Positions 14,739 through 63,002 of a DNA stretch of 64,000 bases are shown in pieces. The notes under the pieces were generated by a model. It had not been told where the DNA came from, ran no database searches, and was given only the letters and a program-made list of their open reading frames with translations. The position numbers and the translations under genes were made by a program. Each line of letters starts with the position of its first letter. Position 1 is the first letter of the stretch. The DNA comes from an uncultured virus (IMG/VR IMGVR_UViG_3300012274_000094) (taxonomy: Duplodnaviria; Heunggongvirae; Uroviricota; Caudoviricetes), in the IMG/VR virus record IMGVR_UViG_3300012274_000094, positions 1 to 64,000 of that record. One strand, written 5' to 3'.

Positions 14739-14805
14739 TGGAACTAACCCAAAATACACTTTAGAAAATTGCTAATAATTCCTGAATTATAGAAATTCAG
14801 GAATT
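14739..14805 (+). promoter_or_regulatory. Late-type promoter + hairpin
   Basis: TGGAAC-N29-AATAAT(14774); stem 14777-14805. Confidence 0.65.
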
Positions 14806-14813
14806 AGGTTCTT

Positions 14814-15503
14814 ATGCTTAAGCGAAATAATCGCCGTCAATGGAGTGAATTTTTCACAAGTAATAAAAGACAAGAACTATTTAAGGACTTCAGTGTTTCA
14901 CTACTTAATAACAGACATAAAAAGCAAAAAAATAGCTCATCTAAACATGTGTTTTTCCCGTGCCAACTAGAAAAAGAAAATGACGGGGAAAATAGTATAT
15001 ATAGGGGGAGCACAGGCGGTGTTATCATTTCTGGTAAGCAATACATCACAATCAAATTGCCTTATGGATTAAGCGCTAACGAGATTTGGCGGGCTACAAT
15101 TGATCAGAACGGAAAGCAAAGAAATAGTCTTTCAGTAGGTGCTAAAAAGTATAAGGACAAGGTTCAAAAACAATATGGACCTATGTTTAGAGCACTTAAA
15201 TTAAAAGCTATCGATCAACTTTGTGAAATACGGTTAGTTGTTCAACCCCCACTTAAAACTCGTTCATACAGCGCTAAGACATATCCACGATTTGATATTG
15301 ATAACTATCCCAAACTAATAATTGATAGTGTCAAAGGTGATGGTTTGTTATTCAAAGACGACAATATTTTCATAAGTGAACAAATTAAGTTGGCAGAACC
15401 ATGTGAAGACGGTTGTGTCTGGCTTTCTTGTGTTTTTACGGATGAAACTGATTGGTTATCTAAAACTGTAGATTTTGATTGGTTAGCTGGGAGAAGCATT
15501 TAA
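14814..15503 (+). CDS. rusA: RusA-family Holliday junction resolvase
   Basis: LPYGLSANEIWR, DIDNYPKLIID, FKDDN. Confidence 0.8.
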   Translation: MLKRNNRRQWSEFFTSNKRQELFKDFSVSLLNNRHKKQKNSSSKHVFFPCQLEKENDGENSIYRGSTGGVIISGKQYITIKLPYGLSANEIWRATIDQNGKQRNSLSVGAKKYKDKVQKQYGPMFRALKLKAIDQLCEIRLVVQPPLKTRSYSAKTYPRFDIDNYPKLIIDSVKGDGLLFKDDNIFISEQIKLAEPCEDGCVWLSCVFTDETDWLSKTVDFDWLAGRSI

Positions 15504-16190
15504 ATGGCGAAAAAGAGCGATTTGCAACGTCGAGTACTCATTGGTAGAAAACTTGCAATGGCGCGTGACATGGCTCAATTACGTCAAGAAGACGTAGCAT
15601 TAGAGATATTCGGTACACCTCACAAGAATCGAATGAGTGAAATCGAAAATGGTAAATTAATGCCAGATGCAGAATTATTATCTGTGCTATGTCAAAAATA
15701 TGGTGTTTCTTCTGATTGGGTACTTGGATTTACTGTTGAGCCAGAATTAGATAAAACTGCTTCTGTAGCAGGTATTTTGTTTAATAGTCTTGGCGATATG
15801 ATGAGTGAATATACTCAAGCCATGGCTTTTCAATTAAGTATGGCCGCAGCACAGCACGTAACGTCATTTCCGAAAGCTTTAACCGTACAGTTGTTAACGG
15901 CTTCAAAAGAGCTTATTCAGGCGTGTTTAACTCAAGATCAGTCTTTTCAAGATAAAGTATTACCTGAATTACAAACTTTAATGCTTATTGTTCGTGAATG
16001 TGAACAAAATCGAGCTAAACAGATTCGTAACCTAGAAATGGCTATTGATGATGTTTTTCAGCGAGACGAAAGCGATATACAGGAAAAGGCATTGATTGAC
16101 CTTATTAAAAATAAAAAGCGTTTTAGTAAAGCTTCTTTACAGCAACAAGCTATAGCTGAAGTAAAACAAATAGGTCTATTTTCAGAGTAA
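15504..16190 (+). CDS. XRE-family HTH regulator
   Basis: LAMARDMAQLRQEDVA..MSEIENGK. Confidence 0.75.
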   Translation: MAKKSDLQRRVLIGRKLAMARDMAQLRQEDVALEIFGTPHKNRMSEIENGKLMPDAELLSVLCQKYGVSSDWVLGFTVEPELDKTASVAGILFNSLGDMMSEYTQAMAFQLSMAAAQHVTSFPKALTVQLLTASKELIQACLTQDQSFQDKVLPELQTLMLIVRECEQNRAKQIRNLEMAIDDVFQRDESDIQEKALIDLIKNKKRFSKASLQQQAIAEVKQIGLFSE

Positions 16191-16203
16191 TGGATAGACA
16201 AAA

Positions 16204-17040
16204 ATGGCTCGCAAGATTGAATACTCGGAAGAAATTTGGAACCGACTAAAGGAAGTCTATGAATCTTCACCAAAGATTACATGGCAGGGTTTAGTTGATC
16301 ACGTTGGCGAAGAACTCGGTTGTGAGATGCCTTCGCCGTCTGTCGTTCGCCGTAAAGCACTTGCTGAGAAATGGAAAAAGAAAGCAAAATCTCTAGTCAA
16401 AAAGTCTGCCCAAGAGCTCAATAAAGAGATAAAAAAATTGACCAATAAAAATAATGGTCAAAATGAGTCACAAGGTTCTGAAAATAAAGAAAAAACTAAT
16501 AGTCAAAATTCAGTCAAAAAAACGTCAAATATTGCTGAATTTAATAGTCAAAACTCAAAAAATAATGGTCAGAATAACGGTGGAAATTCATCAATTAATG
16601 AGAACTATCTAAAGTCTGCATTAGTTATGAAAAATAACCGTGTGAGAGCTCATAAATTAGGTGGTCTAATTGACGATACTATCGATAGTGTTATTCATGT
16701 TCGTGATGAAATTTTAAGATTACATAATCCAACTGACGAAGAGCTTGCCTTAGTAAAGTTCAAAATGGGCATAATCTGTCAAATTGTTGATCTCAATGTA
16801 AAGCAGAGTATTAGTGTATCGAATATTGCAAAAGTTGAAGCACAGTTCTGGGGCTTAGATCTAGATGATCTTAAAGACCAATCAGAAGTCCAAGCACGGC
16901 GTAGTTCTGTTATTTCAGGTGCTGAAGAGCGTATGGCGATAGCTAAGGCTAATATGAAGAAGAATAAAGAAGAGGCATTTATGCGTAAGCTAGCGCTTGT
17001 CGAAGCTGGTGAAGTAGAACCAGAAGATGTGCAAGAATAA
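16204..17040 (+). CDS. Probable terminase small subunit
   Basis: N-terminal HTH (W..LKEVYE..VVRRKALAEKW) typical of TerS; coiled C-terminus. Confidence 0.55.
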   Translation: MARKIEYSEEIWNRLKEVYESSPKITWQGLVDHVGEELGCEMPSPSVVRRKALAEKWKKKAKSLVKKSAQELNKEIKKLTNKNNGQNESQGSENKEKTNSQNSVKKTSNIAEFNSQNSKNNGQNNGGNSSINENYLKSALVMKNNRVRAHKLGGLIDDTIDSVIHVRDEILRLHNPTDEELALVKFKMGIICQIVDLNVKQSISVSNIAKVEAQFWGLDLDDLKDQSEVQARRSSVISGAEERMAIAKANMKKNKEEAFMRKLALVEAGEVEPEDVQE

Positions 17041-17156
17041 GTTGAAAAGCACTGGAATATAGTTGATTAATGAATATACTATTTACTTGATATGTACAAC
17101 AATTTTCATTTCATCAAACAACTTAATTCAAGACATCTAATGTGGGAGAATAATTC

Positions 17157-18337: not shown

Positions 18338-18402
18338 AGGAACTTAATAGCTTTTTATTGAAAAAAATTATCCAAAATGCCCTATATCAGTATGGGGCAT
18401 TA
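18338..18402 (+). promoter_or_regulatory. Late-type promoter + hairpin
   Basis: AGGAAC-N29-CAAAAT(18373); AATGCCC/GGGCATT stem. Confidence 0.65.
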
Positions 18403-18408
18403 TTTGTT

Positions 18409-20706
18409 ATGGCAGATTCAGATCACAATAATTCAGTTTTATCTTATGATGAGCTTGGCTTCATTATTGGTATGAAACGAGTTGAAAAAAAAGTTAGTAC
18501 GATTGATTTAAATATTGAAAAGATTATCGAAATTCTTACTCAAAGCTTTGAAGAGCAAAAAGCACAGTTTGCAAAGCCTCAGCCAAAACTGACTGAATTT
18601 CAAAAGATGCTTAATGCTGTCAATAATAGACCAGCTTTAGACTTTGAAGATTTATTAAAAGAAAAAACGAATCCTATCACGCAGTCTTTTGTTGTAGCCG
18701 ACAAGTTTGTGAAAGACTTTGCTGATGTATTAGAGCAATCAGTTAGTGACCTTAATTCAGCAAATAAAGAACAAATCAACCAACCTAAGGCACGAAAGCC
18801 AGCTATAGAAATTAATAGTCATGAAGATTTGGATAAGATTGTAAGCTCAACCACACCAGAACGTGATGAGAAAGGGCGTTTTGTATCAAACAATAATGAT
18901 GCTCAAAACCAATCATCAATTAGAAAGGTTGCCCAAAAGATTACAACGGCGATTAAAGGAATAATGCCGAACTCACCACAAGGTGTAGATCCCACCGTTG
19001 ATGCTATCAATGAAGTTGGTCACTTACTTTCACCTGTACGCCGTGCTGCGGGTTTAGCCTTGCGGCCATTAACTGGATTGATGCGTAGTAAAAAGCGAAA
19101 TGAGCCATTACCTCGTGAACAAGAGAACCATAACCGCAAACAAATAAAGTTATTGCAGCGTATTGCCGATAATTTAGCGTCTAAAGGTGGTTTGTTAGGT
19201 TCCCTAGGGAAATTACTTACTTCCGCTTTATCTGCTGGTGGCGGGCTGCTAGGAGGTGTTCTAGGCAAAGGAAAGAAAGGTGTAGGTAAATTAGGAAAGG
19301 GCTTGGGTAAACTTCTCAAGTTTGGCCGTGGTCTACCCGTAATTGGTGCATTAGCTGCTGGTGCATCATTGTTAGATTGGAATGAACAAAGCACACAAGA
19401 AAAGGGTGGTACGGTTGGTAGTCTTGCTGGGGGTGTGATCGGTGGTACGGTGGGATCATTATTTGGCCCAGCTGGTACTTTGATTGGTGGTATGGCTGGA
19501 TCTTGGATAGGTAATAAGCTTGGTACCGCAGTTGCGCCGTATTTTAAAGAGTGGACAGATTCATTAATAGCTGCAGATGTACCAGGTATTATTAATACTG
19601 CATGGAAAGGATTTGTTAGTTATGCATCTAATGCTTTTGATCAAGCAAAAGGTACAACTTCAAAAGTTGTGGAAGGTGTCAAAGATACTGCAGGTGATAC
19701 ATTAGATTTCATCAAAGATAAATTTAACCGGTTTAATCCATTTCATGACGGCGTTCCAACGTGGGGAGTAGGCCAAGGAGTTTACAAGCCGGGCTTTGGG
19801 GCAAACAAAAATGTTCCTGCTTATGGAGCTGCAAGTGGTGGTAAGGGCGGTAAATTCAATGGTTTTGGAGTTGATATTGATCAATATATTAAGGAGTCAT
19901 CACAACGTTATGGTATTGATGAAAAAACCTTACGTGGTTTCGTTAAAATTGAGGATGGTTGGAGCGGTAAAATGTCGCCAACAGGTGCAATTGGTACAGG
20001 GCAATTTACTCAAGGTACATGGGATGATTTAGCTAAGACAAAAGAAGGACAAGCTATAGGTATGTCTAAAATTGGTAATCGCTTCCGTACCAAAAATGAT
20101 CCAAGGTTTGATAAACGAGTTAATACTCTTGCTACAGGTCTATTAGCCAAACAAAATGCTGAAAGATTGAAGAAAGCAGGCTTAGAGGTTACTGGTGAAA
20201 ACTTATATATGCTTCATAATATTGGTCCTGGTGTAATACCAGCATTACAAGGACGCAATTCGGTAAGTGCTAAAACCATAGAAGCTATGCGTAATAATGG
20301 TATGCAGTCAAATGAATCACCAGTAGCTTTTGCTCAACGGCAGAAAAACAAATTTCAACAGCACTATAATTTAGCTAATTCTGTGTCTGTAGAAGCTAAA
20401 ACTGTTTCAAAAAAAGAATCAAAACCACCTGAAAATATTTTTAATGAAACACGCGCAAATATGAAACAGGCTTTTGCTACCAAAACTGCCGTAATTCCAA
20501 GGGCAGAGCATGTAGTAGCAGCCTCAACTACTAAAAATCAATTTGTCACATCTGTACCATCCTTTAAACAGCCGCTTAATACTCCTAATCCTCAGGAAGT
20601 TGTTGTTGTAAATCAGAATAATGGTAACATCGGCCAGAATGTTAATGATCGTTTCCTTGCACATGCACTTACTGGTGGCATTGGAATGTATAAGAATGAG
20701 GCTTAA
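18409..20706 (+). CDS. Tape-measure / structural lytic transglycosylase (P1 Sit-like)
   Basis: Gly-rich hydrophobic middle; SLT motifs KIED, GAIGTGQF..TW, YMLHNIGPG. Confidence 0.75.
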   Translation: MADSDHNNSVLSYDELGFIIGMKRVEKKVSTIDLNIEKIIEILTQSFEEQKAQFAKPQPKLTEFQKMLNAVNNRPALDFEDLLKEKTNPITQSFVVADKFVKDFADVLEQSVSDLNSANKEQINQPKARKPAIEINSHEDLDKIVSSTTPERDEKGRFVSNNNDAQNQSSIRKVAQKITTAIKGIMPNSPQGVDPTVDAINEVGHLLSPVRRAAGLALRPLTGLMRSKKRNEPLPREQENHNRKQIKLLQRIADNLASKGGLLGSLGKLLTSALSAGGGLLGGVLGKGKKGVGKLGKGLGKLLKFGRGLPVIGALAAGASLLDWNEQSTQEKGGTVGSLAGGVIGGTVGSLFGPAGTLIGGMAGSWIGNKLGTAVAPYFKEWTDSLIAADVPGIINTAWKGFVSYASNAFDQAKGTTSKVVEGVKDTAGDTLDFIKDKFNRFNPFHDGVPTWGVGQGVYKPGFGANKNVPAYGAASGGKGGKFNGFGVDIDQYIKESSQRYGIDEKTLRGFVKIEDGWSGKMSPTGAIGTGQFTQGTWDDLAKTKEGQAIGMSKIGNRFRTKNDPRFDKRVNTLATGLLAKQNAERLKKAGLEVTGENLYMLHNIGPGVIPALQGRNSVSAKTIEAMRNNGMQSNESPVAFAQRQKNKFQQHYNLANSVSVEAKTVSKKESKPPENIFNETRANMKQAFATKTAVIPRAEHVVAASTTKNQFVTSVPSFKQPLNTPNPQEVVVVNQNNGNIGQNVNDRFLAHALTGGIGMYKNEA

Positions 20707-26234: not shown

Positions 26235-26300
26235 TGGAACCTTTCTCATTTTGTTAGGTTAGGGAATATCAAAATAGCCTCATTGATAAGAGGTTATTTT
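26235..26300 (+). promoter_or_regulatory. Late-type promoter + RBS-occluding hairpin
   Basis: TGGAAC-N29-CAAAAT(26270); AAAATAGCCTC/GAGGTTATTTT. Confidence 0.7.
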
Positions 26301-26301
26301 C

Positions 26302-27618
26302 ATGGGCAGTCTTAATCTTGCAGCTGTAACAGCTACCACTCCATATATTAAAAAAATCCAATCTGCATTAGCAAAAGCAACAGGCCAAACTATCGTTACA
26401 CCAGAGTTTCGAAAAATTAAACGCGTTGCTGGTGTCAGTGTTTTACCAGTTACTTTTTTCTTTTCTGGTGGTGCAACACTTACGCTGTATGTTCGTGCTT
26501 TAGCAGATGTGGTCAAGGCAGAACTTAATGAAAAAGTGATTGTGCTATCAGGTGATTTTAGTGATGACTATAAGCCAACTTTTGATAATGCTGTTAATGG
26601 TGTAGCAAAGCTAATTCGTGAAGCACAATCACAGATTCAAGCACAAAACAAACGTGAAAAAGTGCGTCTTCCTCCACGCCGTACTTCAGTAGATCAAAAG
26701 GCTGTAGAGGTTGAAGAACAAGAGCAAAAGCTTGATGAAGAATTAGTAAAACAAACGGCGCAACGTGATCAACTTTTGGAAAAAATTGAACTAGCCAAAC
26801 AGCAGCTTGGTATCAATTCTATGACGGAGGCTGGTCAATCCGAATTGGGAAAGTCGATTAGTGAAATCGTATCAATTTCCACTGATTCCAGCGCAAATAT
26901 TTTCAAAGAAAATAGATTATCTAACATGTCTGATGTTGTAGAATCATCATCAGATAAGTCTATGATGTGGAAGAACATAGTGTCAAAGTATTTGGGAAGT
27001 GATCATCCACTTTCATTGGAAGAGCAGGAAAAAATTGTAGAAGAATGGATAAGCAGTAATGAATTAAGTATTCTAAAATACGACCTTTTAAATTCAGATG
27101 AGATTGTTAAAAAGTCAAAAAAATATGGTCTAACTTTACCAGAACAAATCGCAATTCGTTATTGGTCAGGATCAGGATTTGGGGGAATTAATGGTGTATT
27201 GCACCAATCAACCCCTTACTCAAAAGAACAAATTTTAATTGAATTAAAAGGTGTATCTCTATTACGTCAGGCATTAGATAAATTACCAAACTTCACAGAG
27301 GAAGTTGTTTTTTCAAGACAGCAATTACCAGAGAAATTGCTTGAATCGATGTTAAACTATGAGACTTATACAGCAGAAGGTTTTTTGTCTGCTAATGTAA
27401 GTTATGATATGTATTCTCATCGAAATATAAAATTAATTATTCAATCTAAAACCGGAAAACACATTGCATGGATTAGTGAGAATTGGGAAACAGAAGATGA
27501 AGTCTTGTTTAAAAATTCCACTTCGTTTAAAGTATTAAACATAGCTGATTCAACAACAGATGAAGCTATTGAAAAAGGTCATATTTGGTTCTATCTAGAG
27601 GAGGATGATAATGAATAA
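26302..27618 (+). CDS. hdf: Hdf/DarA-N-like head protein fused to an ADP-ribosyltransferase
   Basis: N-terminal Hdf-like fold + coiled coil; C-terminal IAIRYWS..GIN..L, VFSR, FLSAN, EDEVLF. Confidence 0.7.
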   Translation: MGSLNLAAVTATTPYIKKIQSALAKATGQTIVTPEFRKIKRVAGVSVLPVTFFFSGGATLTLYVRALADVVKAELNEKVIVLSGDFSDDYKPTFDNAVNGVAKLIREAQSQIQAQNKREKVRLPPRRTSVDQKAVEVEEQEQKLDEELVKQTAQRDQLLEKIELAKQQLGINSMTEAGQSELGKSISEIVSISTDSSANIFKENRLSNMSDVVESSSDKSMMWKNIVSKYLGSDHPLSLEEQEKIVEEWISSNELSILKYDLLNSDEIVKKSKKYGLTLPEQIAIRYWSGSGFGGINGVLHQSTPYSKEQILIELKGVSLLRQALDKLPNFTEEVVFSRQQLPEKLLESMLNYETYTAEGFLSANVSYDMYSHRNIKLIIQSKTGKHIAWISENWETEDEVLFKNSTSFKVLNIADSTTDEAIEKGHIWFYLEEDDNE

Positions 27619-27829: not shown

Positions 27830-27949
27830 ATTGCTTCAAGAATATTCTTTAAAAAAGGCTGCTTAATTGCAGTCTTTTTTATTGGAAGTTGAATTAGTTT
27901 GTTCGAATAAATTAGGGAAAAATGAGTTAGAGATTTTTAAAATTAATAG

Positions 27950-27972
27950 ACTGCTAGATAGCGGTTTTTTTT
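27950..27972 (+). terminator. Intrinsic terminator
   Basis: ACTGCTA/TAGCGGT + T-tract. Confidence 0.55.
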
Positions 27973-27976: not shown

Positions 27977-28042
27977 TGGAACCTTATAAATATCGAGAAG
28001 GTTCAAACAACTACTCTTATAAAAATCCAAATTAAGGGTAGT
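27977..28042 (+). promoter_or_regulatory. Late-type promoter + hairpin
   Basis: TGGAAC-N29-TACTCT(28012); CTACTCTTA/TAAGGGTAG. Confidence 0.7.
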
Positions 28043-28045
28043 ACC

Positions 28046-28402
28046 ATGCAAATTCAAATCGGTATAGATATTGTCTTAATTCTTGCATTTTCTGCGTATC
28101 TTTATTTCATAACAGGGTGGAATGGCAAAAATAAAGCGGCATCAATAAAACAATTTCGGCAAATTCCAATTAACCTTTTATTTAAAGAAATAAGATGGAT
28201 GTACTTCATATGCATGGCATGCGTATTGATCACAATTATTTTAGTTGATTGGCGGATCTATTACGTTGCTTATTACTTTGATGCATTAAGCGTTTCGCTT
28301 TGGATCTTTCTTATCTATTTTACTATTTTTTCTACTTATCAAATTGGCACTGCAATTTTACTAAAGCTTTTGACTATTTTTAGCAATAGAGCAACTTCCT
28401 AA
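28046..28402 (+). CDS. Three-TM membrane protein
   Basis: Three hydrophobic helices; ATG 28046. Confidence 0.6.
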   Translation: MQIQIGIDIVLILAFSAYLYFITGWNGKNKAASIKQFRQIPINLLFKEIRWMYFICMACVLITIILVDWRIYYVAYYFDALSVSLWIFLIYFTIFSTYQIGTAILLKLLTIFSNRATS

Positions 28403-30774: not shown

Positions 30775-30839
30775 TGGAACTGTTGAGTTAGCGCTCAAAT
30801 ACAAAATGATTTCATAGTCCTGTTCATTAGTTCAGGACT
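30775..30839 (+). promoter_or_regulatory. Late-type promoter + hairpin
   Basis: TGGAAC-N29-TTTCAT(30810, weak -10); AGTCCTG/CAGGACT. Confidence 0.6.
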
Positions 30840-30846
30840 TTTTTAT

Positions 30847-31305
30847 ATGCAACAAGCTCAAGAAAATGTTTTAGTAGGAATCGCAGAACCTATCAATGGT
30901 CAAGGAGAAAACTTATTAATTGATCATTTCTTAGGATATGCAAACCAAGAATTAGAACCACAAGAAATTGATAAAGTTGTAAATGGGGAAGTGGTAGAGG
31001 GCATTACAGCTTATGCTCAAGGCCATTACTATAAGATTTCAGCAAATCCTGAAACTCAAAATGCAAAAGATTTTGAAATCAGTCTTCATTTTCAGGATGG
31101 CCCAATTCCAGAACATGGTGTGAATGGGGTGACCAGTGAAGCATTGTTAAAAGTACTTATTCACCGTACTAAAACCTTGGATGAAAAGTTCCCAAGTGAG
31201 TTCAACAAACAAGCAATCATTTATATGGAAAGTGCGTTAGAAGAATTCAATAAGCGTACAGCTGAGCGCCGTGCTCGTGGTGTCGAAGGCACTCTTCTTA
31301 AGTAA
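30847..31305 (+). CDS. tad1: Tad1-family anti-defence sponge protein
   Basis: FQDGP..GVNGV..ALL..N..A..E.AL..NKRTAERRARGVEGT resembles the Tad1 C-terminal hairpin. Confidence 0.7.
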   Translation: MQQAQENVLVGIAEPINGQGENLLIDHFLGYANQELEPQEIDKVVNGEVVEGITAYAQGHYYKISANPETQNAKDFEISLHFQDGPIPEHGVNGVTSEALLKVLIHRTKTLDEKFPSEFNKQAIIYMESALEEFNKRTAERRARGVEGTLLK

Positions 31306-31546: not shown

Positions 31547-31611
31547 TGGAACTGAATAAATTTCGACTATAGAACAATTGAAACAATAGCCTCAATCACA
31601 GCATTGGGGCT
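31547..31611 (+). promoter_or_regulatory. Late-type promoter + hairpin
   Basis: TGGAAC-N29-AACAAT(31582); AGCCTCAAT/ATTGGGGCT. Confidence 0.7.
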
Positions 31612-31617
31612 TTTTTT

Positions 31618-32523
31618 ATGGCTAGCAAAAATAGAAAGACTAAAGTTCTCTCTTACAACCTACATGATCGGTGCCGTAAATATACTGGTGTTGATCGAAG
31701 TAATGTCGATGTTGATGCAATGATCAACCTGATTAATAGTGACTATGTTCAAGAAATGGTTGCTACAAACTCATTGCAAGGTTTTAACGGCCATCACATC
31801 CGACAGCGTTATGGCATGGTACCGCCAGAAACTGTAATCATAAAAGGTAAGTTGGTATATCTTGCACGGGCATTTAAAACTATTAAATTACATGCCTCGA
31901 AAGATGGGACAGTAGAGCATCAAGAAGAGTTCTATGAAAACGAACCTGGTGAATTTGCTTTACAACAATATCAGGCAAAAGCAGGTGGTTTTAGTACATC
32001 AGTAAATTATAAGAATGTCGCTGGCCGTTTAGTCCCTACTGGCTTTTTTGGTTTTGATTTCGTTGCACAACCAAACTATGCAAGTAATGTGGGTGATGGA
32101 CAATTATTTGATGGCTTATTTCTTCCAGAAGAACCTGAAGGTGTTGTTTCTTGCTTTGATAGTGCAACTGATATTTCACAGTTATCACCATCTGAAATTG
32201 TTATTGCTCAACTGCTTGAAGAGCAAATCTTGCAGACGTACGACAATATCAATAGTCAGATTCACCTTTTAAATGAATTGGGTAATGCTCAGGGCTTAGT
32301 CGGTGAATTATCAGAAGTAGTTGATAAGCAAAAACGCGTACAACAACTTAGAGAAGAACGAAAAAAAGAACTCTATACGGGTATGGTCAATCCTGTGAAG
32401 AGTTTTGATTCAGTACAACAACAAGCTGAACAAATCATTCAAAGTTTGGACAATCCAAACGTAAAAGAGAAAGTTAAAAAGCCGAAAAAGTCTTTTGGCA
32501 ATATCTTTAGTGTATGGGGGTAA
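31618..32523 (+). CDS. Head-processing (prohead) protease, P1 Pro-like
   Basis: QE..GFNGH..R, GGFST, GFDFV..PNY. Confidence 0.7.
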   Translation: MASKNRKTKVLSYNLHDRCRKYTGVDRSNVDVDAMINLINSDYVQEMVATNSLQGFNGHHIRQRYGMVPPETVIIKGKLVYLARAFKTIKLHASKDGTVEHQEEFYENEPGEFALQQYQAKAGGFSTSVNYKNVAGRLVPTGFFGFDFVAQPNYASNVGDGQLFDGLFLPEEPEGVVSCFDSATDISQLSPSEIVIAQLLEEQILQTYDNINSQIHLLNELGNAQGLVGELSEVVDKQKRVQQLREERKKELYTGMVNPVKSFDSVQQQAEQIIQSLDNPNVKEKVKKPKKSFGNIFSVWG

Positions 32524-36081: not shown

Positions 36082-36136
36082 TATTACTTTAAGCCATAAC
36101 TACCATAGATCAATAAATCTTATGGGTGGGTTATGG
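36066..36136 (+). promoter_or_regulatory. Late-type promoter + hairpin covering RBS and ATG
   Basis: TGGAAC-N29-TACCAT(36101); CCATAAC/GTTATGG. Confidence 0.7.
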
Positions 36137-39630: not shown

Positions 39631-39932
39631 TGAGTTATTTAGTTTTTAATGTAAAAGGGAAAAAGACAGGGGATATTGATATAGCTGAGCAATGTACTTC
39701 TGCAATTTTCAATTACCAGGTGATCGGGAACGGGGCAGAAGTAGAATTTTTCGGAAGTAATGTTCCAAATGCAGATCCGCAAAATGATTCTCACTGGGTG
39801 CCTATTCTTACTTTAACAGCTGCTTCACCAGATACTGAACCATTTCGACAACATTGCTGGGATAAGCTCCGTTATAAAGTGAAAGCAGGTGATAGTGTAG
39901 AAATTTATGTTTCTAGTGGTGTAAGCGGATAA
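39630..39932 (+). CDS. Small beta-rich virion protein
   Basis: TAATG-coupled ORF. Confidence 0.55.
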   Translation: MSYLVFNVKGKKTGDIDIAEQCTSAIFNYQVIGNGAEVEFFGSNVPNADPQNDSHWVPILTLTAASPDTEPFRQHCWDKLRYKVKAGDSVEIYVSSGVSG

Positions 39933-40041
39933 ATTTAAATTTTTTGCAGTAAGTGGAAATGTAAAAGTAGTAAAAATCAACTATGGATCTACCTGTCTTA
40001 TTGATGTCATAAGAACAGGTAGTTTACTCAAAATAATAGAA

Positions 40042-40794: not shown

Positions 40795-40888
40795 AACCTA
40801 TTTCATTGACTACCTGAAATACACTATATTTTTACTGCTTAAATAACAAGAACACACAAAATAGTGTGTTACTAACCTGGAGGTAGGT

Positions 40889-41257
40889 ATGGATAGAGAC
40901 TGGCAATGTGATGTACCCGAAAAAAGACTTATGTGGGCTCAAGCTACGACTGAAGCGCTGAAAATTATTGAAGGTAAGTGGAAGATAATAATTATATGTC
41001 AACTTTTCGCTGCTAAAGCTCCAATTCGGTTTTCCGAACTAGAGCGGCGGATAGAGGGAGTAAATCAGAAGATGTTGATACAGCAGCTTAAGCAACTTGA
41101 AAAGGACGCAATTGTTTCACGCACACTTTACCCTGAAGTTCCCCCTCGTGTTGAGTACGCACTTACTGATCTGGGAGAAGCACTAGGACCTTCAATGACA
41201 GCATTAATAGACTGGGCATTACTGCGCCGTGAAACCCTTGGCATTGATCCGTCTTAA
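40889..41257 (+). CDS. HxlR-family transcriptional regulator
   Basis: GKWKIII..RFSEL..KMLIQQLKQLE..PPRVEYALT. Confidence 0.9.
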   Translation: MDRDWQCDVPEKRLMWAQATTEALKIIEGKWKIIIICQLFAAKAPIRFSELERRIEGVNQKMLIQQLKQLEKDAIVSRTLYPEVPPRVEYALTDLGEALGPSMTALIDWALLRRETLGIDPS

Positions 41258-41315
41258 CAAGTTGGAAAGATATAGCAAAGTATTCTTAAGATCTTTTTGG
41301 GAATGTTTTTATGTT

Positions 41316-41376
41316 TGGAACCGATCAGAAATAGTAAAAATGGCCATGTCAGACTTTCTTCATCTTACATAGAAAG
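41316..41376 (+). promoter_or_regulatory. Late-type promoter of the capsid gene
   Basis: TGGAAC-N28-CAGACT(41350); short CTTTCT/AGAAAG stem. Confidence 0.6.
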
Positions 41377-41393
41377 CCAAAGGCTGGTTTAAA

Positions 41394-44168: not shown

Positions 44169-44194
44169 AAAAACCACTTCCGAGTGGTTTTTTT
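44169..44194 (+). terminator. Intrinsic terminator
   Basis: AAAACCACT/AGTGGTTTT + T-tract. Confidence 0.7.
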
Positions 44195-44198: not shown

Positions 44199-44262
44199 TG
44201 GAACTAGCCAGAAAATTAAATAAGCCCACAGCTCAAAATACTTAAAACAAATAGCCTTGGGC
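44199..44262 (+). promoter_or_regulatory. Late-type promoter
   Basis: TGGAAC-N29-CAAAAT(44234); imperfect GCCCA/TGGGC stem. Confidence 0.7.
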
Positions 44263-44272
44263 GTGTAATGTA

Positions 44273-45568
44273 ATGAATATACTTGCTCTATCAAGTACAG
44301 GTGAGCTATCCCTTGTAGCAGGGGCCAGCCCATCACTCAAATTGGAATTTGATACTCACAGTTATCTTGCAAATGCAGAAATCAATGTGGCCTTTTTTAC
44401 GAAAGTAACTAGCCCACGCGGACCTGCAGATATTTCTATGCGCTTGGAAATACGTGATGCGGTAACTGGTGATCAAATTGTTACTGTACAAGGATTAGTA
44501 GATGGTGACATTGAAAATTCTGCTTCAATTGTTGCAGTAGCTGATGCTAAAGAATACTTCGAGAAATTTGATTTATCACTGGGCATTGATGCGCTACAAG
44601 CAATTCTCAAATCAACTGCATATAACGAATCTAATAGTTTAGGTCGAGCTTCAAAAACATTGGCCTTAGAAGATGAAGCATTACCTTCATTTAATCCAGA
44701 TGAACTATATAAAATCCTGACAAGTCAGTTAACTACACCAGCATATCTGACTTTGCCTAATCCACATGATTTACCAATTTATGTTGCGGCACAACGTGCA
44801 GCTACAAAATTACGTATTCCTTTAGATGCTGAAATCAACCCAACCTTTACTGCTGAACAGGCAGCCCAATTTGCTACAAGCGTAGATGCTCAATCACAGT
44901 TTGTTCAATTCATTTGGAGTCCGAACCTTTGCCGCCCTTCAGATGCTGTCACCTTTAGAGGGCGTAAGGTACCAGCTTACTATTTGGGCCATTACATCGG
45001 CGATAAATTATTACGTAATGCGAAATTGAATAAACAAGGTTTTGCGCCGTTAAAAAATGCTGTGGCGTGGAAAGATTATCCATTTACAGCAAAAAACTTA
45101 AGCCAGATGTCAGGTAATGATCTTGAAGATGAGCAAATTCAGGAAATGTTGGCTAAGGCTAAAGTAAATGTCGTTCGCCCAGTTAAGTTCGAAACTACAT
45201 TATTTGTATTAAGTGATGTGTTAACCCAATACCAAAGTAAAAATAGTGCTTTGCGCTTAGTTCCTGCAGCCGAAATAGCGGCACGGGTTACAAATAAATG
45301 TATCGAAATTCTTAGAACTTATATGTTCCAAGCAACACCTGACTACATCAAAAAAGCTGGTGACGATATCCAAGAATTTTTAGAAGGAGCATCTAGCGAA
45401 ACAACTGGTTGGTTACAACCTGCTGAAGAGCTGGGGGGAAAACCTTTTGAGTTCAGTTTAGTACCTGATAATGACTTTCCTTATGAGCGGGTACGCCTCT
45501 ATTTAGCCCATGGTGTTGTTGGTACAACGCGTGCCGCAATTTTTGATGAAGACGTTTTAGTTAAATAA
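44273..45568 (+). CDS. Tail sheath protein (P1 gp22-like, apparently lacking N-terminal domain)
   Basis: LAKAKVNVV, SALRL, GTTRA C-terminal sheath features. Confidence 0.7.
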   Translation: MNILALSSTGELSLVAGASPSLKLEFDTHSYLANAEINVAFFTKVTSPRGPADISMRLEIRDAVTGDQIVTVQGLVDGDIENSASIVAVADAKEYFEKFDLSLGIDALQAILKSTAYNESNSLGRASKTLALEDEALPSFNPDELYKILTSQLTTPAYLTLPNPHDLPIYVAAQRAATKLRIPLDAEINPTFTAEQAAQFATSVDAQSQFVQFIWSPNLCRPSDAVTFRGRKVPAYYLGHYIGDKLLRNAKLNKQGFAPLKNAVAWKDYPFTAKNLSQMSGNDLEDEQIQEMLAKAKVNVVRPVKFETTLFVLSDVLTQYQSKNSALRLVPAAEIAARVTNKCIEILRTYMFQATPDYIKKAGDDIQEFLEGASSETTGWLQPAEELGGKPFEFSLVPDNDFPYERVRLYLAHGVVGTTRAAIFDEDVLVK

Positions 45569-46707: not shown

Positions 46708-46733
46708 AAAGCTACCTTTAAGGTGGCTTTTTT
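46708..46733 (+). terminator. Intrinsic terminator
   Basis: AAAGCTACC/GGTGGCTTT + T-tract. Confidence 0.7.
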
Positions 46734-46735: not shown

Positions 46736-46807
46736 TGGAACCAAACAACTTTGAAAGGGTTTTAACCTTTTACTCTTGATGCATATAAAAGCTATAGAGC
46801 ATCAAGA
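46736..46807 (+). promoter_or_regulatory. Late-type promoter + hairpin
   Basis: TGGAAC-N29-TACTCT(46771); TCTTGATGC/GCATCAAGA. Confidence 0.7.
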
Positions 46808-46809
46808 TC

Positions 46810-47457
46810 ATGCAACAATCTAACCCGATTTTACTTAACCAGCTTAAACAAGATTATATTGCCTTACAGCAACTTGGGTCCCCCTTATTAGCGTGTCAAG
46901 GAATGTTTGTACCTCGTGGCATGGAAGACCTTCGCTTTTTATTTAAAAGTTGCCCACGGCCGATTGTGAGTAATGAAGATCCAGCAGAAGTTCAATATGC
47001 GGGTGGTTTTACTGGAATTGTTGCTGGTCCACCGAAAACCCATTACACAGGCAACCTTCAAATCCTAGTAACTGAAGCTGGTCATGATCAACTATTAGCT
47101 GAATATGTCGTAGCTAGTGGTGGAATCATCCATGGTGATTACTACGATGGCCGATTAGGAAGTTTTACCCGCTCATATGCACTTGAAAACTGTGCTATTC
47201 GTTTTGAATCAGCTGAATACGATTCTGATAGCCGATCACAAGTAATGACAGTTTCTTGCCCAATTGATTACAACTACTTTGGTAGTTTCGCAAACATTGG
47301 TACCAACGGTAGTATTCAGCCGGGTAAAAAAGAAATTGATGGTACAGCTGAGCTTGTTAATCGAGTTCAGCAAGTGATCAATACTGCTCAACAAGCAACT
47401 AATCTTGCAAATGCTGTGCAAGGCGTTGGTCGTCAACTGGGCAATCTATTTGGGTAA
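46810..47457 (+). CDS. Tail tube/baseplate protein
   Basis: Beta-rich, tube-like size; follows sheath. Confidence 0.55.
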   Translation: MQQSNPILLNQLKQDYIALQQLGSPLLACQGMFVPRGMEDLRFLFKSCPRPIVSNEDPAEVQYAGGFTGIVAGPPKTHYTGNLQILVTEAGHDQLLAEYVVASGGIIHGDYYDGRLGSFTRSYALENCAIRFESAEYDSDSRSQVMTVSCPIDYNYFGSFANIGTNGSIQPGKKEIDGTAELVNRVQQVINTAQQATNLANAVQGVGRQLGNLFG

Positions 47458-47900
47458 TGGCTATGAAGTTATTACCTGAATCAGAAGGGTATGCTGTAGT
47501 TGCTGGTTCTATCCAGCAACTTTCGGAAGAACTCTATAAAGAATATCAATTAACTGGTTACTCAATTTTGCTTGAGGATATCGTTAAGGCATTTATTGAA
47601 GAGACAAAATCTTATGCGGGTTGGGCGACATTAGATTGTCAAACTAAGGCAATTACCAGTATTGAACTGAATGAATCCATAGAACTTAATGGGGATGAGT
47701 ATGTAATCATTTTGCCTTTAGTAAAAGCGCATTGTGATCTTTTGCAAGCTCGATTAGTTGAAGCTACCCGTGGGCTAGGTGTCGAAAGTTACGGGCTTTC
47801 AGTCTCAGAAGCTCAGCAAAACTATAATGAGAAGAAAGAAGCTTTACCAAAACTTGCATTTTTAATGGTCCCTAAGAGTTTTAATATGGGGAACCGTTAA
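47457..47900 (+). CDS. Morphogenetic protein
   Basis: Coupled late ORF. Confidence 0.55.
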   Translation: MAMKLLPESEGYAVVAGSIQQLSEELYKEYQLTGYSILLEDIVKAFIEETKSYAGWATLDCQTKAITSIELNESIELNGDEYVIILPLVKAHCDLLQARLVEATRGLGVESYGLSVSEAQQNYNEKKEALPKLAFLMVPKSFNMGNR

Positions 47901-48793
47901 TGCAAATTACCATTGTGTCTGCGGGTAAAGTTATTCCAGCATCTGAGCTCATTAGTGCAACTTTAAGAACTGATCTCGTACCAATTCCAGCATCCATTGA
48001 GTTTACAGTTCAATCAACAGCAGAATTAGACTCCCTTTTGAAAGAAGGGGAGCAGTTAACTGTAAACGATATTTCTCATCCATTTGAATTAATCAAAGTT
48101 ACTCCTCTAAAAACTCAAACTATTAAACAAGATCGCCGTGTAGGTGGTATCTCATGTATTGGCATTTTGGCTGGCTGTAAAAGACTTATCGAAAATTCAA
48201 AGCAAGCTGTTATTAGTAATGAAACCTCCTTTAATTCAGTGATAAGAGCTTGTGGAGCAACTATCAGTCTAGGTGGTGATTTACCTTTGCCAAAATTCGT
48301 ATGCCTAAAGGGAAGCTTGCCTACACAACGTTTGGCTCATTATCTGCAGCAAGAAGCGGCAGTCATTTGTTTTCAAAACAATAAGATGTCAGCTCAAAAA
48401 ATTGATTCTTTTTTCAAAAAGGAACCAGTCACAAAACTAGATCCTAGCAGTGTCGTTTGGATATCCAGTAAACCTTTGGAACTGATGCAAAAATCATCTT
48501 TCGTGACCGTGGAGAATAACGGTTCAACGGTTGTTGGTGATGACTCAATAACCCCAGGCCACACTGTTACGCAAAGAGCTGGTTTAGATGCCCGACAAGT
48601 TAAAAACTTAGAAAAAGTTTTGATCTTGCGGGGAACCATAATCAGGCCGCTAAATTTGAATTGGAATGCGGGCGATATATTCGAAATTGATAGTAAGAAG
48701 TATGTCGTTTTAACAGCTGCACATCATATAGATACAGGCGCAATCGGGGGATCAATGGGGACTTCATCAAAGTTCTGGATTGCTAATTTGTAG
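47900..48793 (+). CDS. Baseplate hub protein
   Basis: ATLRTDLVPIP..LTAAH; directly before spike. Confidence 0.55.
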   Translation: MQITIVSAGKVIPASELISATLRTDLVPIPASIEFTVQSTAELDSLLKEGEQLTVNDISHPFELIKVTPLKTQTIKQDRRVGGISCIGILAGCKRLIENSKQAVISNETSFNSVIRACGATISLGGDLPLPKFVCLKGSLPTQRLAHYLQQEAAVICFQNNKMSAQKIDSFFKKEPVTKLDPSSVVWISSKPLELMQKSSFVTVENNGSTVVGDDSITPGHTVTQRAGLDARQVKNLEKVLILRGTIIRPLNLNWNAGDIFEIDSKKYVVLTAAHHIDTGAIGGSMGTSSKFWIANL

Positions 48794-59308: not shown

Positions 59309-59313
59309 TGAAG

Positions 59314-59337
59314 AAGGGCTAGTTATCTAGCCCTTTA
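59314..59337 (+). terminator. Hairpin after giant fibre gene
   Basis: AAGGGCTAG/CTAGCCCTT, short T-tract. Confidence 0.45.
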
Positions 59338-59352
59338 TATTGGGAGGACAAT

Positions 59353-60349: not shown

Positions 60350-60377
60350 AAGAAAGCCCCTTAATTGGGGCTTTCTT
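60350..60377. terminator. Bidirectional terminator
   Basis: AAGAAAGCCCC/GGGGCTTTCTT. Confidence 0.7.
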
Positions 60378-60391
60378 CATTTAAATGCATT

Positions 60392-60586: not shown

Positions 60587-60626
60587 GAGCTTTTCCTCTA
60601 AAACAGATTAAAAAATATGTGCAGAT

Positions 60627-60742
60627 AGAATTGCATGCTGTGGATTTATTGAATCTGTACGGTTCCAATTAACTTTGGAACTCATCTAATAGTTAAAAAT
60701 TGGTAGCCATCAAAATACTTAATTATTTAGGTATTTTGGCTT
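60627..60742. promoter_or_regulatory. Back-to-back late-type promoters
   Basis: GTTCCAA-ttaact-TTGGAAC; minus -10 AATTCT(60632), plus -10 CAAAAT(60711) with CAAAATAC/GTATTTTG stem. Confidence 0.7.
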
Positions 60743-60746
60743 AGTT

Positions 60747-62282
60747 ATGTCTTCTCGGTTCTTATCGTTGTTACTCGGTGAAAATGTTAATTCATATGAT
60801 CAGCAATTTGATGCCTCAAATCAGGATGCTACGGCGCAGCTTTATGAATCCATGGCACCATTTTCACTTGGGACCAATCAAACTAAAGCCAATAAGAAGC
60901 GTACTCGAAAAGAAATTTTCACCAAATGGGAGAGAATGTTACGCTTTGCCCCTATCGCAGAGGGTATGGGGATTCATGTTTCTGCAGCTTTAGGCGGAGA
61001 TTCTTATAGCGGCCAACAAGTGTTTATTACACCAGCACAACGTTTGAAAAAGGGAAATGGCCCAGCAGCTGAAAAAATCAAAAAGCAGCTAGATGAACGC
61101 CGTGATGTCATGGAAAAGCTGATCAATAAGTATTTAAGTAAGCTTGCCCGAGATGCGATTTCATTTGGCGATTCTTATGCCCGAATTTATGGCAAAAAAG
61201 AAAATGGAGTAATTGACCTCCTTTGTAATGAGTATACTTATCCGCCATTAATACAGCCATTCGAACAGGGCAGTAAAACTGTCGCATTTTTTTGCTTAGA
61301 TCCTCGAAATTGGCAGAAAACTATTACCAAACTAAATACTATTCAAATGGTACGTTTCAAAATGCCCCGTATGAGCAATATTGCTCAATATGAACTTGTT
61401 GAAACTGGCCTTGTAACTAAAATGTTAGAAGGAGATGACCCAGATGAATTACCGATTTTACCAGCGCATTTAGGTGGTTCATTTCTATACGAAATTGAAG
61501 AAGTTTATGATGATGTGATTCTTGCATTGGCATCTATGAACAGCCAGCAGATTGCAGATACAGTAAATCAGATGTTCTTGACGGTAAATATGTCTGGAAT
61601 GCCGCCAGCACAACGCCAAGCCTATGTTCGGGGTTTAGAAGGTTTACTTAAAAATCATGAGACATATGTTCGTGATGCTTTATCTGGTGGCGAAGCCGTT
61701 TGGAATACTGCTTTTCATATGCTGCCAGTATTTGATGAAAAGCAAGTTCTAAATCCTGTTGGTGATATCAAACTTCAAAGAAGCTCACCTATTAATATTG
61801 AACAATTCATGATTAATGTCCGTTTGTTAATGGGCGGGATAGGTCTAGACCCAAGTATGGTAGGGTGGGCTGACATGTTAACTGGTGGTATTGGTGAAGG
61901 AGGAGCGTTCCATACCTCAGCGCAAATAATGCGTAGGTCACAAGATATTCGTACAGCAGTAACTGAAGGGATTAATCAGATTCTTCATTTGGATTGGGGA
62001 TTTGCATTTAATGAACAATTTGAGCCTAAAGATTATCCTTGGCAAGTTGAATATTATACAAACCAAACTGCAGCAGCTACTGAAGAAATCAGTAATGCCC
62101 AATCTAGAATGAATACAACACTACTTAAAACCCAAGTGATTGCCGCTTTAAAGGAGACAAACTTAGATGTAGAAACTATGGCCTATATTCTAGAGCGCGA
62201 TGCAGGTATGAAATATGATGAAGCTCAATTATTATCTGAAAGTATTTTTAAGAGCCGTAAATTTCCTGAGGATGATGAATAA
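60747..62282 (+). CDS. Portal protein (P1 Prt-like)
   Basis: A..FGDSYARIYG..G; GGS.L; GLDPSMVGWADML.GG.GEGG. Confidence 0.75.
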   Translation: MSSRFLSLLLGENVNSYDQQFDASNQDATAQLYESMAPFSLGTNQTKANKKRTRKEIFTKWERMLRFAPIAEGMGIHVSAALGGDSYSGQQVFITPAQRLKKGNGPAAEKIKKQLDERRDVMEKLINKYLSKLARDAISFGDSYARIYGKKENGVIDLLCNEYTYPPLIQPFEQGSKTVAFFCLDPRNWQKTITKLNTIQMVRFKMPRMSNIAQYELVETGLVTKMLEGDDPDELPILPAHLGGSFLYEIEEVYDDVILALASMNSQQIADTVNQMFLTVNMSGMPPAQRQAYVRGLEGLLKNHETYVRDALSGGEAVWNTAFHMLPVFDEKQVLNPVGDIKLQRSSPINIEQFMINVRLLMGGIGLDPSMVGWADMLTGGIGEGGAFHTSAQIMRRSQDIRTAVTEGINQILHLDWGFAFNEQFEPKDYPWQVEYYTNQTAAATEEISNAQSRMNTTLLKTQVIAALKETNLDVETMAYILERDAGMKYDEAQLLSESIFKSRKFPEDDE

Positions 62283-62935
62283 TGGCTTTTTTTGAATATG
62301 AAACACAGAATAAAACGTCTAATAACAGTTTTGGTAATGTTATAAGTCCATTCAAGGAACGTTTTGCAAGAAATCCTGTCTTATGGTCTGGATTGACAGT
62401 TGATAAAGCTGTTTCTCATTATCAAGAGCTCTATGCATTAGGAACTCTCTCAGCCGCTCATTTTGGAATAGAAATTAGACCTTATCGGGCAAATAGTAAG
62501 ATTGCCCAAGCGAATATTCCAATTTTTGATCCTTCCAATAAAATCGCATGGTTAGCCAATAATGTTGATGTATCTCTTCTGGATGCACAAACAGATTCAG
62601 TACATGTTGGACACCATCAACTCAACTATATAACCGGTAATGCCTCGAATGAATTAAGTATCTCATTTATTGAGACTAAAGCTGCAGCTATTGCAAATAG
62701 TGCATTAGCCATAAAGCAGATAATGTTTAATAAAGATGGTACACAACCGCCACCTATAGAATATTTAATGCGTTTGAAAATATATGCTTTTGATAAAGCT
62801 GTAAGATCTCAACATCATTTTGAAATTGAGCATTTAGTATCTCTACAAGCTGGTAATTTGCCTCTAGATGCCGCAAATAAAGCCCATTCAATAGTCACTT
62901 TAAATTTCACTAAAATGTTCCCGAACTTAAAATAA
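62282..62935 (+). CDS. Tail tube-like/baseplate protein
   Basis: ELSISFIET, DGT.PPP.EY. Confidence 0.5.
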   Translation: MAFFEYETQNKTSNNSFGNVISPFKERFARNPVLWSGLTVDKAVSHYQELYALGTLSAAHFGIEIRPYRANSKIAQANIPIFDPSNKIAWLANNVDVSLLDAQTDSVHVGHHQLNYITGNASNELSISFIETKAAAIANSALAIKQIMFNKDGTQPPPIEYLMRLKIYAFDKAVRSQHHFEIEHLVSLQAGNLPLDAANKAHSIVTLNFTKMFPNLK

Positions 62936-62939
62936 GCTA

Positions 62940-63002
62940 TGGAACTCATTGGCTTTTTACATTCAATAGATTGAGAAAATATCCTCAAATTAAAATGAGG
63001 AT
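62940..63002 (+). promoter_or_regulatory. Late-type promoter + RBS-occluding hairpin
   Basis: TGGAAC-N29-GAAAAT(62975); TATCCTCA/TGAGGATA. Confidence 0.72.

Follow-up and report, generated by a model that had tools for sequence, protein, structure and literature searches.

Late promoters of a temperate Acinetobacter myovirus overlap hairpins predicted to mask the ribosome-binding site in read-through RNA

Why should an inverted repeat lie across both the promoter and the ribosome-binding site (RBS) of nearly every late operon of a phage? The question is raised by IMG/VR record IMGVR_UViG_3300012274_000094, an uncultured member of the Caudoviricetes, of which we analysed positions 1 to 64,000 (the window, 64,000 nucleotides) and which is a temperate Acinetobacter myovirus. 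An initial annotation of this DNA had reported ten such repeats and two weaker ones, and had proposed that transcripts reading through from upstream fold and stay silent while late transcripts, lacking the left arm, remain free. Having weighed the evidence below, we regard it as fairly probable that the late promoters are embedded in RBS-masking hairpins, that read-through RNA is silent and late RNA translated, and that the hairpins serve in part as terminators.

What do these sites have in common? Twelve operon starts on the plus strand share one layout, namely (T/A)GGAAC, 29 variable nucleotides (nt), a -10-like YAnnnT box and a hairpin whose 3' arm lies over the RBS, and each of the 12 inverted repeats occupies an intergenic gap directly 5' of the first gene in a co-directional block; all ten main and both weaker repeats of the initial annotation were recovered in the sequence and in the folds. 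The upstream box reads TGGAAC in every cassette gap (AGGAAC at 18338), and a 13th copy lies on the minus strand at 60667. Two start codons were moved relative to the mechanical list of open reading frames (ORFs), to ATG 18409 instead of TTG 18358 and to ATG 28046 instead of TTG 27971. The sites are given below in order, together with three separate terminators. Energies are in kcal/mol: the minimum free energy (MFE) of the leader, and the opening cost of the RBS in read-through RNA versus RNA from the predicted late start. The difference between these two costs is called ddG, and a masking effect was counted where ddG was at least 4 kcal/mol. Terminator-like hairpins were called by a simple scan rule and by a laxer one.

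Cassette 1, 14739-14816, plus strand, before a RusA-like gene: TGGAAC 14739-14744; -10 box AATAAT 14774-14779; predicted +1 about 14786; hairpin 14777-14805 (fold 14771-14809); ATG 14814; MFE -15.0; opening cost 15.0 versus 4.0; terminator-like under both scan rules.
Cassette 2, 18338-18411, plus strand, before a 765-aa tail-lysin-like gene: AGGAAC 18338-18343; -10 box CAAAAT 18373-18378; predicted +1 about 18385; hairpin 18376-18401; ATG 18409; MFE -14.6; opening cost 18.2 versus 4.5; terminator-like under both scan rules.
Cassette 3, 26235-26304, plus strand, before a gene with an Hdf-like N-terminus: TGGAAC 26235-26240; -10 box CAAAAT 26270-26275; predicted +1 about 26282; hairpin 26271-26300 with GAGG in the right arm; ATG 26302; MFE -12.1; opening cost 14.4 versus 2.1; 93.8% of alignment cells paired in 16 variants.
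Separate terminator-like hairpin with T-run, 27948-27972, plus strand, directly upstream of cassette 4.
Cassette 4, 27977-28048, plus strand: TGGAAC 27977-27982; -10 box TACTCT 28012-28017; predicted +1 about 28024; hairpin 28010-28042; ATG 28046; MFE -10.6; opening cost 10.8 versus 4.8.
Cassette 5, 30775-30849, plus strand: TGGAAC 30775-30780; -10 box either TTTCAT 30810-30815 (preceded by TGa) or CATAGT 30813-30818; predicted +1 about 30822-30825; hairpin 30816-30839 with AGGA in the right arm, then a T-run; ATG 30847; MFE -10.6; opening cost 10.6 versus 4.7; terminator-like under the laxer rule.
Cassette 6, 31547-31620, plus strand: TGGAAC 31547-31552; -10 box AACAAT 31582-31587; predicted +1 about 31594; hairpin 31588-31611, then a T-run; ATG 31618; MFE -11.6; opening cost 12.7 versus 6.8; terminator-like under both scan rules.
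Cassette 7, 36066-36136, plus strand, before a tail-collar fibre gene: TGGAAC 36066-36071, within the end of the terminase gene; -10 box TACCAT 36101-36106; predicted +1 about 36113; two-tier hairpin 36095-36135 that contains ATG 36133; MFE -11.4; opening cost 16.9 versus 7.4.
Cassette 8, 41316-41396, plus strand, before a 592-aa head-related gene: TGGAAC 41316-41321; -10 box CAGACT 41350-41355; predicted +1 about 41362; weak structure 41344-41387; ATG 41394; MFE -8.2; ddG 2.1.
Separate terminator-like hairpin with T-run, 44169-44194, plus strand, upstream of cassette 9.
Cassette 9, 44199-44275, plus strand, before the tail sheath gene: TGGAAC 44199-44204; -10 box CAAAAT 44234-44239; predicted +1 about 44246; weak long-range stem 44227-44265; ATG 44273; MFE -6.8; opening cost 11.3 versus 4.3.
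Separate terminator-like hairpin with T-run, 46708-46733, plus strand, upstream of cassette 10.
Cassette 10, 46736-46812, plus strand, before the tail tube gene: TGGAAC 46736-46741; -10 box TACTCT 46771-46776; predicted +1 about 46783; hairpin 46774-46807; ATG 46810; MFE -13.4; opening cost 12.5 versus 3.2.
Minus-strand promoter, 60667-60586, before a 64-aa gene: TGGAAC 60667-60662; -10 box AATTCT 60632-60627; predicted +1 about 60620; ATG 60586; no masking hairpin; opening cost 4.2 versus 5.0.
Cassette 11, 60676-60749, plus strand, before the portal gene: TGGAAC 60676-60681; -10 box CAAAAT 60711-60716; predicted +1 about 60723; hairpin 60705-60741; ATG 60747; MFE -13.6, with a z-score against dinucleotide shuffles of -4.23.
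Cassette 12, 62940-63011, plus strand, before a gene with a DarA_N domain: TGGAAC 62940-62945; -10 box GAAAAT 62975-62980; predicted +1 about 62987; hairpin 62980-63003 with GAGG in the right arm; GTG 63009; MFE -10.4.

How well is the promoter itself defined? GGAAC does not vary among relatives, whereas the ~30 nt that follow it are scrambled, although their number hardly changes. When 48 non-redundant variants were anchored on GGAAC, the 29 nt after the box proved free, followed by A at position 36 (46/48), T at position 40 (46/48) and A at position 47 (36/48). A more distant set of seven prophages (L153-L159) from other Acinetobacter species and Alkanindiges, located with a 9-sequence sheath alignment and having a sheath identity of 50-59%, gave 44 promoters with the same layout of TTGGAAC, 29 nt, CAAAAT, 6 nt and A (A in 41/44, T in 33/44, A at +1 in 34/44); the 13 promoters of the window have A(-11) in 11, T(-7) in all and A at +1 in nine. 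Judged from their sequence context, the A and T of this A-N3-T pair are A(-11) and T(-7), which mark -10 boxes of the sigma-70 family; the consensus of the box is CAAAAT, and at several sites a TG stands two bases upstream of it. As the box occurs even where no stem encloses it (44273, 63009, 41394), and at the minus-strand promoter, which has no hairpin, it is not a by-product of the hairpins.

The upstream element then falls at about -47 to -42, centred near -44, a position typical of activator sites. No -10-like signal stands 17 nt after GGAAC in the 48 variants (information at most 0.31 bit), and as nothing is conserved 16-18 nt after it, GGAAC is not a -35 element. In promoters of extracytoplasmic-function (ECF) sigma factors a GGAAC-type -35 is followed by a -10 element at a distance of about 16-17 nt. 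Neither a -35 nor an ECF-type role for TGGAAC was accepted, since no -10 stands in register and the real box lies 29 nt downstream. Nor is there a conserved -35 hexamer 16-18 nt upstream of the -10 box, where the spacer carries at most 0.57 bit per position; a consensus scan of the 12 plus-strand cassettes returned a single TTGACA/TATAAT-type match, TTTACA-18 nt-TATCCT at 62956-62985 in cassette 12. A sigma-54 -24 box was dismissed by inspection, no GC element following 5 nt on, and a search of the window for Sigma70_r2/r4 proteins yielded only a weak match in a 67-aa protein with a helix-turn-helix (HTH; E=0.005). Literature searches on phage vB_AbaM_ABMM1, on late promoters of Acinetobacter prophages and on TGGAAC returned no description of the motif or of transcription.

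Some further observations concern the motif. A. baumannii phages and prophages as distant as those of Alkanindiges share the order (T)TGGAAC, 29 nt, CAAAAT, 6 nt, A. At 60662-60681 two copies form an inverted pair 8 nt apart (GTTCCA-N8-TGGAAC) that heads divergent promoters, of which only the plus-strand one (portal) has a masking hairpin. An AGGAAC site at 12420 was considered as a cassette and discarded, a terminator standing between the site and the gene. ABMM1 has two more cassettes beyond the range of the window (L160 38492-38560 and L161 316-385, the latter ABMM1 40316-40385): the one before a baseplate/tail-tube gene has a strong hairpin with a T-run (-13.2 kcal/mol) and the one before the holin a weak hairpin (-4.2).

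What, then, do the hairpins cover? At all 12 sites, ten strong and two weak, the Shine-Dalgarno (SD)/start region is paired by a stable hairpin. The ten main sites have leader MFEs between -10.4 and -15.0 kcal/mol; those at 41354 and 44224, the two that the initial annotation had already set apart as weaker, have -8.2 and -6.8. Set against 49 other plus-strand genes, the 12 promoter-proximal leaders have a z-score against dinucleotide shuffles, calculated on the last 50 nt before the start codon, of -2.45 versus -0.31 (Mann-Whitney p=3.1e-5), a mean MFE of -12.5 versus -8.4 (p=3e-4) and a pairing probability of the SD window (-14 to -5) of 0.76 versus 0.48 (p=3.4e-5), in line with the claim that the right arm holds the SD/start region. 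The stems differ from site to site, as had been noticed, yet they share an anti-SD/SD-like core (CCTC/GAGG, CCCT/GGGG or CCTG/CAGG). Counted in nt after the C of GGAAC, the -10 box occupies 30-35, the left arm about 31-43, the predicted start about 42, the loop about 44-47, the right arm with the SD about 48-60 and the start codon 62-74. The promoter model, derived independently of the earlier description, agrees with it that the left arm overlaps the -10 box or predicted start, at 12 of 12 sites.

Two strongly structured leaders were also seen at non-promoter genes: at 47900 (47860-47902; MFE -17.4, z -3.2, SD paired 0.79) and at 59353 (59310-59352), where a terminator-like hairpin of -21.3 follows the 3501-aa gene.

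Does the predicted start free the RBS? The position of the -10 box puts +1 at the top of the left arm or in the loop, and therefore late RNA should contain only 0-4 of the 8-16 left-arm bases at the 12 sites. The mean cost of opening positions -16 to +3 is 12.0 kcal/mol in read-through RNA versus 4.7 in late RNA, with a lower value at 12 of 13 promoters (Wilcoxon p=0.0005), the hairpin-less minus-strand promoter being the sole exception; a control truncation at -24 in the 49 other genes changed the cost by 1.1, versus 8.0 kcal/mol for the 12 cassettes (p=1.2e-6). The folding check proposed by the initial annotation, with the left arm present or removed, thereby gave the expected result, and as the effect is present at 11 of the 13 TGGAAC promoters, the term regulon-wide used by the initial annotation is fair for this lineage. 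When the start was slid along the sequence, masking was kept if it lay at least 8 nt upstream of the prediction and was lost from about -4 onward, which makes the model sharply falsifiable: unmasking requires a start no more than about 4 nt upstream of the predicted one, or downstream of it.

From these data we propose that each late operon opens with one modular cassette. TGGAAC, at about -47 to -42, would presumably be bound by a phage activator, and a sigma-70-type -10 box (YAnnnT, consensus CAAAAT) after exactly 29 free nt would set the start about 7 nt after the box, leaving a leader of 20-34 nt. The -10 box and discriminator would form the 5' arm of the hairpin and the SD region its 3' arm. 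RNA arriving from upstream would possess both arms and fold, burying the ribosome site, and at about five of the 12 sites a U-tract after the hairpin probably also terminates transcription; RNA from the cassette's own promoter would begin at the top of the 5' arm, form no hairpin and be translated. The hairpin may in this way act as an insulator, read-through being stopped by termination where possible and by RBS masking in any case, and with late operons insulated from upstream transcription their expression would therefore be strictly dependent on the TGGAAC promoter. More tentatively, and as a claim that we put forward without leaning on it, the Acinetobacter and Alkanindiges phage clade may run its late regulon from one such self-insulating cassette, in which the hairpin is at once the terminator of the previous unit and the RBS lock of the next, and in which operons respond only to their own activated promoter.

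Is this arrangement kept by relatives? A masking ddG was found in 112 of 145 distinct leader variants from close relatives and, in the distant prophages, at 20 of 44 promoters versus 12 of 101 control ORFs (p=2.7e-6). In three close-relative alignments the share of paired cells is 94%, 88% and 98%, and each alignment has a single compensatory pair. Ungapped close variants leave 108 of 141 pairs invariant, and include 15 columns that switch between Watson-Crick and G-U, three with A-C, 15 with other mismatches and two compensatory changes; variable columns make up 36 of 282 paired versus 50 of 219 unpaired positions. The 15:3 ratio of G-U over A-C favours a structure formed in plus-strand RNA, as far as variation among relatives can tell. 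The G-U count within the window does not decide the matter: plus-strand folds at the 12 sites contain 12 G-U pairs (at least one at nine sites) versus eight in opposite-strand folds (four sites).

A number of results speak against the proposed masking, or narrow it. The plus strand is the more stable at nine of 12 sites, which is not significant (Wilcoxon p=0.11). The hairpin is weak at 41394 and absent at the minus-strand promoter, and among close variants masking is scarce at 41394 (1/18 reach 4 kcal/mol) and at the tube gene 46810 (9/19, decayed in 10/19); in distant orthologues of the tube gene it is lost (ddG 0.2-3.4 kcal/mol). More than half of the distant promoters are without a masking hairpin, which is enriched there and far from universal. 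The covariation that the initial annotation had hoped for turned out weak among close relatives, with shuffles matching the observed score in 14/500, 1/500 and 131/500 runs for the three alignments, and RNAalifold found no consensus structure in MAFFT alignments of the portal and DarA-like leaders that included the distant orthologues. Orthologues were therefore folded one by one: DarA-like leaders fold in six of six cases (z -2.4 or lower), portal leaders well in L153 (z -3.47), L158 (-3.35) and L155 (-2.28) and weakly in L154 (-1.31), the inner stems of L155 and L158 differing from that of the window and L153 forming one long helix, and fibre leaders weakly (z -1.8 to +0.35).

The whole interpretation also depends on the start predicted from sequence about 7 nt after the conserved T. 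Logan contigs of relatives (6-10% of words), assembled from four RNA libraries, cannot show transcripts, starts or translation, and their ends are not interpretable. One of them starts right at TGGAAC 41316, 46 nt before the start predicted there; a single contig begins near a predicted start (36121 versus 36113), contig ends fall at 30779, 41316 and 36121-36147, and contigs bridge the promoters at 36066, 41316 and 44199, none of which speaks for or against the predicted starts. Five of the 12 hairpins being terminator-like, part of the "silencing" of read-through is probably termination, which the initial annotation had left out of account. Across 180 distinct variants a terminator-like hairpin occurs in 7/71 with a separate upstream terminator versus 53/109 without, a Fisher test of which treats related sequences as independent; the variants are related by descent, and its p-value is therefore not a true probability. 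Finally, the genes upstream are for the most part late genes themselves and are transcribed simultaneously, which leaves the selective reason for masking not obvious, and the early-versus-late rationale of phage T4 is therefore not directly transferable. Plus-strand morons are plausible sources of unwanted read-through, namely Ant, a 767-aa gene and HxlR in the window, and in ABMM1 a toxin-antitoxin pair stands just before the tube promoter. The central claim about silent read-through and free late RNA thus stands in its geometry and energies (12.0 versus 4.7 kcal/mol), while weak covariation, the 20/44 of the distant set and the share of termination leave it incomplete.

A protein that reads TGGAAC was likewise not found by Pfam, PHROGs, NCBIfam and PDB sequence searches or in the Atlas. 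Upstream of 18324 the only proteins with ABMM1 matches are those encoded at 12520, 13297, 13570 (37 residues), 14814, 15504, 16204, 17157 and 17589, and the sole DNA-binding domain among them is in the Xre-type HTH protein 15504-16190; PDB sequence searches of 15504, 10718 and 16204 brought up no activator candidate beyond it. In the Atlas, 13570 appeared as DUF4238-like and 16204 as a small-terminase-like lead, with no activator candidate, and homologues of Mor/C, Ogr or Lpa were not detected by Pfam, PHROGs or NCBIfam. As a separate observation, the 278-aa protein 16204-17040, encoded in the first TGGAAC operon, resembles small-terminase clusters of the Atlas (score 0.92, 150-164 shared features), a lead only.

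Could the hairpins be explained without masking? They might mainly be terminators or 3'-end stabilisers of the preceding operon, overlapping the next promoter in a compact genome with masking as a by-product, which we consider unlikely. By the simple rule three of the 12 are terminator-like with a T-run (14776-14806, 18376-18401, 31588-31611) and by the laxer rule five (14777, 18376, 26271, 30816, 31588), and these five, with a G-C stem followed by a T-run, do resemble canonical intrinsic terminators. Terminator-like hairpins and separate upstream terminators also tend to exclude each other, in the proportions given above, and among orthologues of site 28046 the two states alternate between lineages, relatives that have no upstream terminator showing a T-run after the hairpin. 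However, unlike an intrinsic terminator the structure encloses a -10 box and the predicted start within its stem and has the RBS of the next gene as its 3' arm, and seven of the 12 hairpins lack a T-run. The cassettes at 28046, 44273 and 46810 mask despite a separate terminator immediately upstream of TGGAAC, and 60747 has no co-directional upstream gene to terminate. Moreover, the SD/start region is always under the right arm, the anti-SD-like core is conserved, and the bridging RNA contigs, though weak evidence, run the same way.

Rather less likely still, in our judgement, is that late RNA starts upstream of the stem, and that a 5'-terminal stem-loop either protects it or is opened by a phage or host factor as a form of translational activation. 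In its favour, a 5' stem-loop is able to protect mRNA from decay, hairpin and TGGAAC are separated by a constant distance, a -35 role of TGGAAC would place the start at the stem base, and one RNA contig begins at TGGAAC. Against it, the 16-18 nt register after GGAAC shows no conserved -10; the A-N3-T box that is conserved follows only after 29 nt, within the left arm or at its base, and a 29-nt spacer is longer than a -35/-10 pair allows. The predicted +1 would lie 8-16 nt inside the structure, which bears on a 5'-terminal stabiliser as far as a predicted start can, and a burial of 12 kcal/mol at the RBS of abundant structural genes would need an opener, and the loops have no common sequence for it to recognise. 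An action of the repeats in DNA, as cruciforms or strand hairpins that aid promoter opening or as operators of a dimeric regulator, seems to us very improbable. Although the repeats overlap -10 to +20 of every promoter and the opposite strand folds more stably at 14814, 41394 and 63009, the stem sequences differ at every site, which therefore provide no common operator. The right arm also follows the SD region and not a fixed promoter position, and both the variation among relatives (G-U over A-C in 15 columns to three) and the G-U pairs of the plus strand at nine of 12 sites argue for RNA. We accordingly retain RBS masking with partial termination as the preferred explanation.

How does this masking compare with systems already described? 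In T4, soc and 49 each have a late promoter within an RBS-sequestering hairpin. T4 uses masking at few genes, separating early from late expression, and its late promoters consist of one -10-type box recognised by the phage sigma factor gp55, unlike the bipartite TGGAAC, 29 nt, YAnnnT of the window. For T4 gene e, PMC3014915 places the late promoters within the 5' strand of an inhibitory structure: the longer transcripts fold and give 100-fold less lysozyme, while those begun at the proximal promoter are without that strand and are translated. The same source describes this promoter-in-hairpin logic for I-TevI. The window resembles e and I-TevI, as far as they are described there, in having the promoter in the 5' strand, with the same predicted geometry at 11 of 13 promoters. 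Unlike in T4, the arrangement extends to nearly every promoter of one regulon, in a temperate phage of Acinetobacter, upstream transcription is mostly late, about five of 12 hairpins double as terminators, and the system is known from sequence and computation. The initial annotation had named e and soc as examples of the few T4 cases. Literature searches returned only T4-type cases of promoter-in-hairpin masking and no regulon-wide one, and on in silico support the window would represent a regulon-wide variant of the e/soc/I-TevI logic, new in its scale.

The promoters themselves have other parallels. Late promoters dependent on Mor/C of Mu, Ogr of P2 or Lpa of P1 possess an upstream activator site and a -10 box and no -35, and the window promoters are alike in their upstream box near -44, their A(-11)/T(-7) -10 box and the lack of a -35 consensus, with the difference that the box is the non-palindromic TGGAAC. 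As in P1, there are many separate late operons, and the window phage has the P1-like accessory genes DarA_N, an Hdf-like gene and Ant. Lpa-dependent promoters of P1 combine the -10 box with a 9-bp inverted repeat near -22; here -29 to -13 is not conserved, and no Lpa-like annotation was obtained with Pfam, PHROGs or NCBIfam.

The late region of the window has 88.9% nt identity to Acinetobacter phage vB_AbaM_ABMM1, and more than 100 IMG/VR contigs encode sheath and baseplate proteins 91-99% identical to those of the window. The window codes for a CI-like repressor with an S24 peptidase domain, a replication module, three DNA methyltransferases and a contractile-tail structural module (sheath, tube, baseplate, portal, terminase and a 3501-aa tail protein). 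The 3501-aa ORF had brought to mind an N4-like phage with hairpin promoters, an idea that was abandoned, the ORF encoding a tail protein. In the large terminase ORF 34069-36081 (670 aa), residues 61-123 give a Hom_end-associated Hint match (E=8e-8) and residues 211-406, further on, one to Terminase_6N; the ORF may contain an intein or Hint insertion. A moron block at 39932-41306 is missing from relatives; it comprises an NADP/F420-oxidoreductase-like gene (40042-40794, minus strand) and an HxlR-type regulator (40889-41257), and in three of the four RNA libraries (X1, X4, X8) contigs join 39931 to 41306 via 66 other letters. A gene at 13570-14724, inserted after the orthologue of ABMM1 gene 66 and ahead of the first late cassette, encodes a 384-aa DUF4238-like protein (Atlas score 0.97) whose ABMM1 match is limited to a 37-residue stretch (65% identity); the GC content of this DNA is low (0.31), and the gene is likely a moron.

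What would such an architecture mean for these phages? Provided that the predicted starts are correct, no earlier case is known to us in which masking is the default architecture of a whole late regulon, and this one is found in temperate phages of a clinically important genus. The late-promoter model (TGGAAC, 29 nt, CAAAAT, 6 nt, A) is precise and testable for a large group of Acinetobacter prophages, aids the annotation of operons and of true start codons (two of which were corrected here) and points to a putative activator. For synthetic biology, the cassette would offer a compact natural insulator that joins terminator, promoter and conditional ribosome site in about 75 nt. If the self-insulating cassette does hold for the whole clade, it would constitute a general design rule by which the structural and lysis genes of a prophage are silenced despite read-through from morons and from the host.

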